Shown in pieces: positions 15,001 through 18,000 of a DNA stretch of 20,968 bases. Numbering within the stretch: the stretch's first letter is position 1; each line of letters starts with the position of its first letter. The stretch spans positions 1 through 20,968 of the forward strand of contig JARRRI010000039.1 of NCBI GenBank assembly GCA_037380845.1, written 5' to 3'. This stretch comes from Candidatus Sulfobium sp. (GTDB lineage Bacteria; Nitrospirota; Thermodesulfovibrionia; Thermodesulfovibrionales; UBA6898). The position numbers were made by a program.

Positions 15001-18000
15001 TTGTGCTGAAGGATGTGACATGATCTGGTATAATCGGAGTAAGAAAACCTCGGGGTGAATATATTGAAGAACCGAATGGTCTTTGTTCTCTTGATCGTCC
15101 TTTTGACCTTTGCCGCGATGTCCGGCTGCTCAAGGAAGCCGGAAACGAAGCTCTGGTCCAATCTCTGTGCAGCCTGTCACAACGGCAAGACTGCTCCGAC
15201 GTCCGATGTCATACGTGACAAGTACAGGACAACTGAAGAATTCGCTGTTGCAGTGAAGGCCCGGGGCCACAGGTGTATGAACATTCTCAAGAACGACAAC
15301 AGCCTGATAAGAAAAGTGGCCCGCGAGATAGGACTCAAGGATTAATGGCAGGGGGCTTGACAACCCCCTGAAAGCGAGTTAGCCTGAAAGCAGAAACCGG
15401 TATGCGATGCTCCGGCAGAGGATAACCAGAGAACCAAGTAAATTCGTAAGGGGGCCGGGGTTGGATGCGGTGAGCATGCCTCCACTCTCGGAGGAAGCCT
15501 GAAGCACCATCGAAGCTCCCATGGAAAAAACAGGCTTGATGGATTACCGGCCGGGGCATCGCACTTGAATTCCGGAGCCGTACGGAAGTTCAATGTCGTC
15601 ACAGATCCCGGGCAGAAACCACGCTTTTCCTTCCTGCGTCAGACCTGTCCAATGGAGGACTTGCCGTATGGCTCTTCTTGTGTCGAGGCAAGAATACGTC
15701 CACGAGGTACTGACAGTCTCAAAGCAGTGTGAACATCCTCAGCCACTTCCTGCTGCGTCACCGTCAGAGACCTTCTCTTGCGTCATCATGACGGACAAAC
15801 CACGGGAATCCTGAAGACTTCAGTCTGAAGGAGCCGTTTCAAAAAGCCTTTGGGTCGGTTATAATACTCGAAAAAATGGGGAGGCATCCTTATGAAAAAA
15901 GTGTCTTTATTCATTGTCATTGCCTGTATGATCCTTGCTGCGGGCTGTGCAAAGAGCGTTACCCAATCAACGGCAAACGGCAAGTTTCACGTAAAGATGA
16001 TATTCGGCGACAAGACCCTGAAGATGGGAAGAAATGAAGTCAGACTGAAAATAACAGACGCAAAAGGCTCAACCGCAGAAGGGGCAAAGGTGCAGGTAGT
16101 CCCCACTATGCCGGAACATCATATGGGCCCCATGTTTCCGCCTACCGTAACGGAAGAAGGGGACGGCGTCTACAAGGTCGTCATGCCGCTGACCATGGCC
16201 GGCCACTGGGTCGTACGGGTAAAGGTCGCCAGCGGGACGAATAAGGGAACCGCCTCTTTCGATTTTCCGAACGTTCAGAAATGAGCCCTGTCTGAACTTT
16301 TGATTAAAATTATTTAATTGTACTTTTCCTTCCGACTGTGATAGTCTGTTTCGCATCGGTTTCGACTTTCAAAACAGGATGTTAGGGAGGAATCAACCCG
16401 AATCTGCACGACTTGCCGGTCTTTCCGATGCGGCGATCCCTTCATATTTTCTTCAAACTAATCATATATGTTTAGCACAACGAGAAGGAAATCTGGAAGG
16501 AATCGGAGATGAATCGAGGGCACATTCCCGGAAAAAAGAGTCGGGAGTTCACTGATAAATCGGCGGCGGCGCCAATCAATAATAACTCAATCAACGAATG
16601 AAGGTGAGATATGAAGGAGCGTGACGTTGTAGAAGCTATAATAGATATGGGCATGGAGAGGGGGAAAGTAACCTATGACGAAATCAACGATGCCCTCCCC
16701 TCGGAATTTTTTTCACTCGATGAGCTTGCCGGCCTTGTCGGGCTCCTGATCGACATGGGCGTGAAGGTTATAGAGTACAATACTTGCCCCGGCACCAGAA
16801 AGATGAGGCTTGCCGTAGCCGGATAATCGGGGCTGAATATAGATCCATTCCAGTTCTGAAGGCCCGGATCCCTTTCAGGGTCCGGACCTTCAGAACAACG
16901 GTCGTGCATGACCATGCTCGAGCAAAAAACATTTTCTGGCAAAATCCGAATAATTAATATATAATATGTATTATAAAATTAATTATCGGGAGCGGTTGTT
17001 TGACGAGCAATGTAACAAAGATCTTCTTTCCCCTCTTTTTTTCTGTCTCTTCTTTTTTGCGGCCCGGGCAATGGCCGCCCAGTCCTCTGACCCGTCCAAG
17101 ACCGGCACGCCAAACCTCACGGTCAACGAAAGCACCATGGCCAAGACTCATGAAGATGCCGCCGAAAACACCTTGTCCAAGAAGAAGAAGTCCGAGATCC
17201 TGGCAAGGGCTCTGAGAGTGCCGCTGGGAGCGGATTGCAAGGCCTACTTTTCCCTGGAGCCGCCGCACGGAATGGAAGCGTTGCGGGAAGAGCTGGAAAA
17301 CAAGACCATTTACCGTGCCGTTTTCGGCGTTAATATCCCTTTGTAGAAGTTTTCCCTACTCTCTCCCTGTCCGGCAAACCGGAACGAAGACATTTTCACC
17401 CCAGAGACGCAGAGGGCGCAGAGAGGTTTAATTTATATATTTCTGCTGAGACGGCAGAAATATATAAATTGCCATGATGAGCTTTTTTTGTTTTCCGGCC
17501 TCTCACCCGAAAACAAAGTTACAGTATCCGTCCGGTGGTGGATAAATCTCTCCGAACTCTGAGTCTCACCGGTGAATCAGAATTCTTTCATTTTCTTTGT
17601 ACGCCTGGACCGCTGGTCCGTTCATTTCTTAACATCAATTTCATCAGCAGACGGGAAATATCTGATGTATGCGAGTGCGCCGAGGTCGTAGATGAAATGC
17701 AGCTGTACGGGCATGAGAAGATGGCCTGAGATTTGGAAAACGCACCCGATGTAAAAGCCCATTAATGTCGCCGCGACGGCATAGGCGGGGCTTACGAAAT
17801 GGATGAGACCGAAGATGATGCTTGCAGCAACGATTCCAAATTCGGTCTGAAGGACACCTCTGAAGAGCAGCTCCTCTGCAAATCCGGCACTGACAGAAAT
17901 CAGAACAAGTTCCGTTGCGCCGACATCAAGAAAGAGCAACCTGATTTCTTTCAGAACTTTTCTCCTCAGAGAACGGAGGACAGGGACTCTCCCGGCTCTT

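Follow-up and report, generated by a model that had tools for sequence, protein, structure and literature searches.

To our knowledge, region 1.1 is the least understood part of the housekeeping sigma factors. In the papers cited here it is treated solely as a tethered domain, and it is said to autoinhibit free sigma and, within the polymerase channel, to mimic DNA by its negative charge (PMC4598750, PMC7641759, PMC11156646). Its removal, according to two reports, changes promoter output up to ~32-fold, with an increase at some promoters (PMC6970531), and alters the retention or release of sigma (PMC12478191), which makes region 1.1 a usable control point. The short proteins dealt with here share sequence family and fold with region 1.1 of the group 1 sigma70 factors (E. 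coli sigma70, B. subtilis SigA 5MWW, T. maritima 2K6X). They differ from it in that they are free, lack regions 1.2-4, have a less acidic stripe and linker, have P36 replaced, and possess a basic tail and a stress-type promoter of their own.

PhyR mimics the sigma2/sigma4 part of an ECF sigma factor, has a receiver domain and titrates NepR. The short proteins resemble this sigma-mimic anti-anti-sigma factor in logic only, a sigma-derived piece serving as regulator and not as sigma factor (PMC4551977). They consist of region 1.1 alone. SigO-RsoA is a two-subunit sigma factor. Like SigO-RsoA and the sigma2-only and sigma4-only proteins, the short genes provide a sigma domain as a separate polypeptide, and sigma domains other than sigma2 and sigma4 seldom stand alone (bioRxiv 10.64898/2026.10.08.757525). 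The difference is that the domains of SigO-RsoA and of the single-domain proteins bind DNA and polymerase. A split sigma factor encoded by adjacent genes was considered for the short genes and rejected: beside them lie genes unrelated to sigma factors, or else a complete rpoD that has a region 1.1 itself; a partner supplied in trans is conceivable. The channel-blocking tail of the delta subunit (PMC11156646), T7 Ocr and SPO1 Gp44 are also small factors, possibly acting at the same site as sigma1.1; they are strongly acidic and unrelated in sequence, whereas the short proteins have evolved away from acidity. A description of a stand-alone region-1.1 family was not found in the open-access papers searched, and the terms "sigma" and "rpoD" gave 0 matches in the part of the supplements searched of the Ca. 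Sulfobium metaproteome paper (PMC5812927).

The window, by which we mean the whole stretch of 20,968 nucleotides analysed here, carries such a gene on the forward strand at 16611-16826. It is a 72-codon frame with an ATG start that encodes 71 amino acids (type A) and is preceded by a ribosome-binding site, AAGGTGA (16601-16607, +), which is kept in the four genus orthologues and in the type C gene of genome G016. Residues 1-56 (16611-16778, +) are the stand-alone region 1.1 domain, as seen from Pfam, the predicted model, the residue table and dN/dS; residues 57-71 with the stop codon (16779-16826, +) are a basic C-terminal tail that replaces the acidic linker of RpoD. The sole Pfam match of the protein is PF03979 (Sigma70_r1_1; residues 3-57, E 1.3e-11), with 44.7 bits against a curated cut-off of 22.5. 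Tested as a group 1 sigma factor (RpoD/SigA), it reaches 30.5 bits against a cut-off of 555, and regions 1.2, 2, 3 and 4 are absent from the polypeptide, which stops after residue 71. The protein thus belongs to PF03979 but is no group 1 sigma factor. Its predicted model (pLDDT 69.6) has the three-helix sigma1.1 fold (helices 3-17, 22-28 and 36-49) with two short strands, and matches B. subtilis SigA 5MWW over 58 aligned residues (VIA Z 7.7, next match Z 5.0; rmsd 2.0; TM 0.72). No winged helix-turn-helix stands out among the structural matches listed, as a DNA-binding reading of that type would have it. The tail is predicted with a pLDDT mostly below 50, has a net charge of +3 and ends in LAVAG (LAAAG or LAAAS in relatives).

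A six-frame search of the whole genome (G000) found four region-1.1 matches: the window frame, a second short gene on contig C52 (type B; an 85-codon frame with a 70-aa protein at 20991-21203; PF03979, 41.5 bits), and two full RpoD proteins, RpoD1 on C54 and RpoD2 on C25. Three further sigma70-family proteins of the genome have no Pfam region-1.1 match. Both stand-alone proteins reported by the first-pass annotation, with frames of 72 and 85 codons, are therefore real, and the 67% identity that it gave for the window protein and the RpoD paralogue on C54 is reproduced (69.6% over 56 residues, 67% over 58). As a separate observation, rpoD of the primary type lies directly after the 3' end of 23S rRNA on C54 (1-1634, locus L002) and in many relatives, with neither a 5S gene nor dnaG in between, which would explain its place near contig starts in many assemblies. 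In an Rfam search no RNA family was found in the window; the sole matches were a tRNA and the 23S end in L002.

That the short genes belong to a conserved family and are not gene fragments, as had been proposed, is borne out by several lines of evidence. Types A and B are present in all four genomes of the genus, type A together with its neighbours. Pairwise dN/dS is 0.03-0.11 for type A (6 pairs; dN 0.02-0.07, dS 0.29-1.18) and 0.12-0.29 for type B (6 within-genus pairs), with Fisher p ≤0.002 in all 12 pairs, compared with 0.07-0.21 for four neighbouring genes and part of rpoD2; even in the tail of type A, dN is smaller than dS in 6/6 pairs. The C52 copy likewise behaves as a gene and not as a fragment. 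With tblastn and the rest of RpoD as query, no remainder of rpoD was found at 11 short-gene loci or in the window, except for an intact rpoD in L038. A pseudogene or frameshift reading of the window gene was accordingly rejected, given its dN/dS and the missing remainder; so was the derivation of the tail from an rpoD frameshift, as there is no convincing DNA or tblastx match to rpoD.

It should be noted that all the genomes appear to be metagenome assemblies, and that five other short frames (L047, L049, L050, L058, L064) turned out to be frameshifted full rpoD genes, both of which speak for regarding the short genes as non-functional rpoD remnants or assembly artefacts. True artefacts look different, however: the acidic linker is kept (in the five frameshifted genes as well as in three frames, L055-L057, cut by contig ends), position 36 is P or another residue than L, and the rest of rpoD follows. 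Together with purifying selection on both core and tail, the fixed length, ribosome-binding site and synteny, and the conserved promoters described below, this largely refutes the remnant or artefact reading, which we consider very improbable.

The search covered 41 relatives and 251 genomes of the order (150 of 328 matches listed); 61 genomes with two or more matches were re-queried, and short frames of up to ~180 amino acids were inspected. At least 23 closed short genes in 16 genomes (11 of family f1, 5 of family f5) were confirmed by translation, and one more is found in the named Nbg-4 record. The family is hence wider than the one short-frame match in another genome from which the first-pass annotation started. 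The nine further clusters of 71-73 aa at 62-85% identity that it named are indeed listed, with the reservation that one of them (P0010, 62%) keeps RpoD-type residues and is probably a broken rpoD. Database labels of the members are either automatic, by domain, or wrong in that they name primary sigma factors; for example, a relative at 82% identity from Candidatus Sulfobium sp. bears the automatic name "sigma factor region1.1 domain-containing protein". Most of the named relatives carry a Nitrospirae or Thermodesulfovibrionales label.

No genuine short gene was seen when short frames of 26 re-queried genomes of family f12 were inspected, and a phylum sample of 301 genomes gave no new short frame among the matches listed (150 of 230). 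A 50%-cluster search gave further short proteins without genomic context, and Atlas clusters of 71-80 aa in other phyla (Myxococcota, Omnitrophota and Pseudomonadota) are candidates. The short genes are thus known from two Thermodesulfovibrionales families, apparently from metagenome assemblies, and their range appears to be narrow. Family f12 itself has up to 10 RpoD paralogues per genome; nearly all of the up to 10 region-1.1 matches per genome, e.g., in G243, lie in long frames of RpoD size, and group-1-like sigma factors are thus unusually expanded in this family. The databases also hold a group (P0041, P0052, P0066, P0049) of proteins with 4-10 tandem region-1.1 repeats, of which P0066 (1413 aa) ends in a full RpoD; the same group has one region 1.1 midway in an unrelated 472-aa protein.

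In a tree of 57 columns and 91 rows (36 RpoD, 5 outgroup and 50 short proteins, 23 of them genome-verified and 27 from databases; a set biased in so far as the database proteins were picked by eye), 49 of the 50 short proteins form one clade nested inside RpoD region 1.1 (90/87, the bootstrap being not fully settled). Type A is sister to type C, and type B groups with type D; the test does not reject a common origin of all 50 (p-AU 0.76). In G016, G223 and G235 (family f1) and in G129 (family f5), a secondary rpoD stands immediately in front of the short gene, and the G016 locus has neighbours in common with the window; the position behind rpoD fits a duplication of the rpoD 5' end. A viral origin finds no structural match at E ≤0.001, and of nine weak tblastn matches in phages, seven are annotated RpoD or sigma factors and two lie in unannotated records.

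How far the short proteins have moved away from RpoD was assessed by comparing 36 RpoD region-1.1 rows with the 50 short rows. Near-invariant in RpoD are E9 (35 of 36), K15 (36), P36 (35), E40 (36) and D/E44 (35). In the window protein the exposed near-invariant acids E9, E40, D/E41 and D/E44 have become A9, A40, G41 and G44, and P36 has become L. Of the 50 short rows, 42 have A at position 9 and 49 have L, I or V at position 36, while 41 and 44 vary; among the genome-verified genes, E9 is replaced in 22/23 and P36 is missing from 23/23. Retained in the short rows are D5, E24, D/E27, G18 and L46. The mean net charge of residues 1-56 shifts from -10.7 in RpoD to -5.4 in the short rows, and where RpoD has acidic linkers of -10 and -12, the short proteins have tails of 0 to +7. 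Helix 3 of type A has the sequence L-A-G-L-V-G-L-L, which puts a stripe of small residues where RpoD is acidic. This hydrophobic patch is specific to type A: across types B-D, E40 is kept in 32 of the 50 rows. Most type B proteins carry a net positive charge (+2 to +3 in the genus), types B and C have Arg on helix 3, and types C and D have almost no tail. The description of the window protein as acidic holds for residues 1-56, with a net charge of -8 (RpoD1, -10), but not for the linker, in which -10 to -12 has turned into a tail of +3. A tail ending in AA may act as a ClpXP degron. The C-terminus is AA in 15 of the 50 rows (which are related and so not independent) compared with 18 of 1868 crude open reading frames of G000, and resembles the tmRNA tag of this genome; by analogy, some members may be short-lived.

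Upstream of the window gene there is a direct repeat, TTCATA-TTTTC-TTCAAA (16441-16457, +), with an 11-bp period, a predicted activator site whose geometry we take to be that of the OmpR/PhoB type, followed after 9 nt by a predicted -10 hexamer, TATGTT (16467-16472, +); the transcript would accordingly start near 16479. The repeat is identical in all four genus orthologues and in G016. The exact pattern has 51 matches in 29 of 46 genomes of family f1 (reversed control, 0), of which 12 are located upstream of a paralogue of rpoD and 7 upstream of a short gene in the same orientation. The sequence nAnnnT is found at exactly 9 nt in 41 of 47 distinct sites, compared with at most 8 at other offsets between 3 and 19. 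Other targets include msrA-like, copC, ytkA, resB, Spy/ZraP-like, MacB-type, RND fusion and rseC genes, i.e., by their predicted functions, genes of envelope, metal and oxidant stress. The TTCA-N7-TTCA repeat with its -10 element would thus define an apparently undescribed regulon in family f1. A near-match of both elements precedes RpoD2 on C25. That the window gene and a secondary rpoD have this promoter in common lends indirect support to the earlier proposal of a regulator. Tandem arrays of the repeat occur in G000 at C7:5657-5690 and C10:10288-10310. Six proteins of the OmpR family are encoded in the genome, and one repeat site is directly preceded by a BaeSR-like pair whose scores stay below the curated cut-offs. 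Near three type B genes (G016, G223, G235) the repeat lies on the reverse strand and was not counted, as it points away from them; in G016 and G235 it is directed toward an msrA-like gene.

The C52 type has a different promoter. An FNR-like palindrome, ATGAT-N4-ATCAT, followed by 22 nt and a -10 element, is located upstream of eight of the ten type B genes and three of the five type D genes. In G000 the same palindrome is also found in front of hcp, of two ferredoxin-type genes and of one cupin-like gene (sites C12:37615, C18:31643, C42:13632 and C58:2638); three of these were used to train the matrix. Taken by itself, the C52 site is level with ~15 others, so that its conservation is the evidence. 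The genes hcp and frdX form the core of the HcpR regulon, with related FNR-like boxes (PMC1274295). At C52, class II spacing and shared targets would agree with an activator of the HcpR/DNR type, but the box deviates from the motifs published for it. A sigma54-like motif in front of the C52 gene was discarded on visual inspection, its spacing being off by one. Elsewhere in the genome (C31:9796-12305; L072, L118) an RpoD-like sigma factor whose region 1.1 is degenerate and a Crp/Fnr regulator are encoded divergently, a CRP-like box lying in the space between the two. Among the 23 verified short genes, 11 have the direct-repeat promoter on their own strand, 11 have the palindrome promoter and 20 have at least one of the two.

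Immediately upstream of the window gene lies a gene for a YtkA-like protein (15892-16284, +; Pfam), syntenic in G002 and G003 and with a partial match in G001; other ytkA genes have the same repeat promoter. Between the two genes a second block conserved within the genus (16300-16360, +), AT-rich and with a weak FNR-like half site, is a possible further promoter; it has 2 mismatches to the FNR-like box and no -10 element at class II spacing. A match of upstream block 1 to G016 was discounted, as it falls inside an rpoD terminator hairpin. A generic promoter and terminator scan gave nothing for the short gene itself. Behind its stop codon and before the next promoter there is a strong inverted repeat of 44 nt (16853-16896, no strand assigned; self-match and fold), which has no U tract and is peculiar to this genome; it is absent behind three orthologues, blastn found no second genome copy, and it was not called a terminator. 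The downstream neighbour encodes a 126-aa protein (16966-17346, +) conserved in the genus (55-59% identity in G001-G003), for which there was no Pfam or NCBIfam match. Farther away are OsmC, DUF488 and hemerythrin genes (18347-19731) and two short open reading frames, presumably TatA-like, on either side of a glycosyltransferase-like gene (11456-11647 and 13108-13425). In family f5, OsmC-like or hemerythrin-like genes recur beside the short region-1.1 genes.

For the function of the free domain we favour, with a probability of roughly 40%, a stress-induced trans-acting modulator of an RpoD-type sigma factor or holoenzyme that would work by protein contact rather than by DNA mimicry. According to this proposal, the small gene would have arisen once, by duplication of an rpoD 5' end in the ancestry of the two Thermodesulfovibrionales families, and the piece would then have been kept as a protein in its own right. 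The window type would be switched on through the direct-repeat promoter by an activator responding to envelope or oxidant stress, together with a secondary RpoD, and the C52 type by an HcpR/DNR-like Crp/Fnr activator. With the fold kept, the acidic helix-3 stripe turned into a patch of small or hydrophobic residues and the acidic linker into a basic tail, the free domain would act in trans through protein contact with an RpoD-type sigma or with the holoenzyme. Its simplest partner would be the strongly acidic region 1.1 and linker of RpoD itself, with which basic tail and neutral patch could pair; binding there would alter gatekeeping by sigma1.1 or the competition among sigma factors, to the benefit of stress transcription. 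In favour of the modulator are the charge complementarity of tail and linker (0 to +7 versus -10 and -12), the adjacency of short gene and secondary rpoD in two families, and the common promoter element. Against it, the common promoter could be a leftover of the duplication, though it has been kept across families; only type A has the hydrophobic patch; and the genomes of f12, with as many as 10 RpoD paralogues, had no genuine short gene in the frames inspected, so that the paralogues do not need it. Moreover, in one source both autoinhibition of free sigma and channel binding are attributed to region 1.1, negative charge being named for the channel role (PMC4598750); the lost acidity may therefore mean that any contact with sigma or polymerase has been lost.

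The channel-binding part of the first-pass annotation would have the free acidic domain enter the main channel of core or holoenzyme as a DNA mimic and act as a gatekeeper in trans, for example on sigma factors without region 1.1, of which the three sigma70-family proteins of G000 without a Pfam region-1.1 match may be examples. The fold is that of sigma1.1 and the core is still net negative (-8 in the window protein, mean -5.4 in the 50 rows), but E9 is replaced in nearly all verified genes, D41 and D44 vary, type A has lost E40, most type B proteins are net positive, a basic tail stands in place of the acidic linker, and the tether by which region 1.1 is kept in the channel is missing. Because region 1.1 is described as a negative DNA mimic, the loss of exposed acidic stripe and linker argues against simple mimicry; as far as can be judged from sequence, the channel reading for the window protein is weakened, and we consider it decidedly unlikely. 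Slightly better odds, though still poor ones, can be given to a decoy that titrates a protein recognising region 1.1 of RpoD (an anti-sigma factor or a protease adaptor) and thereby releases or stabilises RpoD2, induced along with it, in a manner similar to the titration of NepR by PhyR. This would agree with the co-regulation and adjacency of short gene and RpoD2, with an N-terminal half that is still RpoD-like (D5, T21, D/E23, E24, N26, D/E27) and with the frequent AA C-termini. No candidate partner is conserved beside the short gene, however, most of the retained acids look, from model and residue table, like structural helix caps, and the surface changes make the domain a poorer copy of RpoD. 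Least probable of these functional explanations is that the fold was repurposed, in a small stress protein with no link to the transcription machinery, for binding nucleic acid or an unrelated partner via the basic tail and the new surface. Basic tails of up to +7, Arg on helix 3 in types B and C, and neighbourhoods with stress genes (OsmC, hemerythrin, MsrA, rubrerythrin, Usp) point in this direction, but sigma1.1 is the sole clear fold match, the tail is almost missing in types C and D, and more RpoD-like residues are retained than a new function would need.

A more specific form of the favoured trans-acting modulator can be put forward tentatively, its odds being clearly below even: the short proteins may represent a stress-induced and so far undescribed class of "anti-region-1.1" or trans-sigma1.1 factors, in which a charge-altered copy of the gatekeeper binds the acidic region 1.1 and linker of RpoD (or the site to which these bind) and reprogrammes the housekeeping holoenzyme. 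The two paralogues would answer to two stress sensors, one for envelope or oxidant stress and one for nitrosative stress, and one of them would be co-induced with a second RpoD.

The short region-1.1 family is real, apparently undescribed and narrow in range. Tiny conserved genes of some sediment bacteria, standing behind stress-type promoters, point to an undescribed small regulator of transcription. If a free region 1.1 is selected for and has stress promoters of its own, this would show that cells make regulatory use of the domain in trans. The family also provides an evolutionary map of those surface residues (E9, K15, P36, D41, D44) that matter only in cis, and with a protein of 71 residues the question of what region 1.1 binds becomes directly testable.
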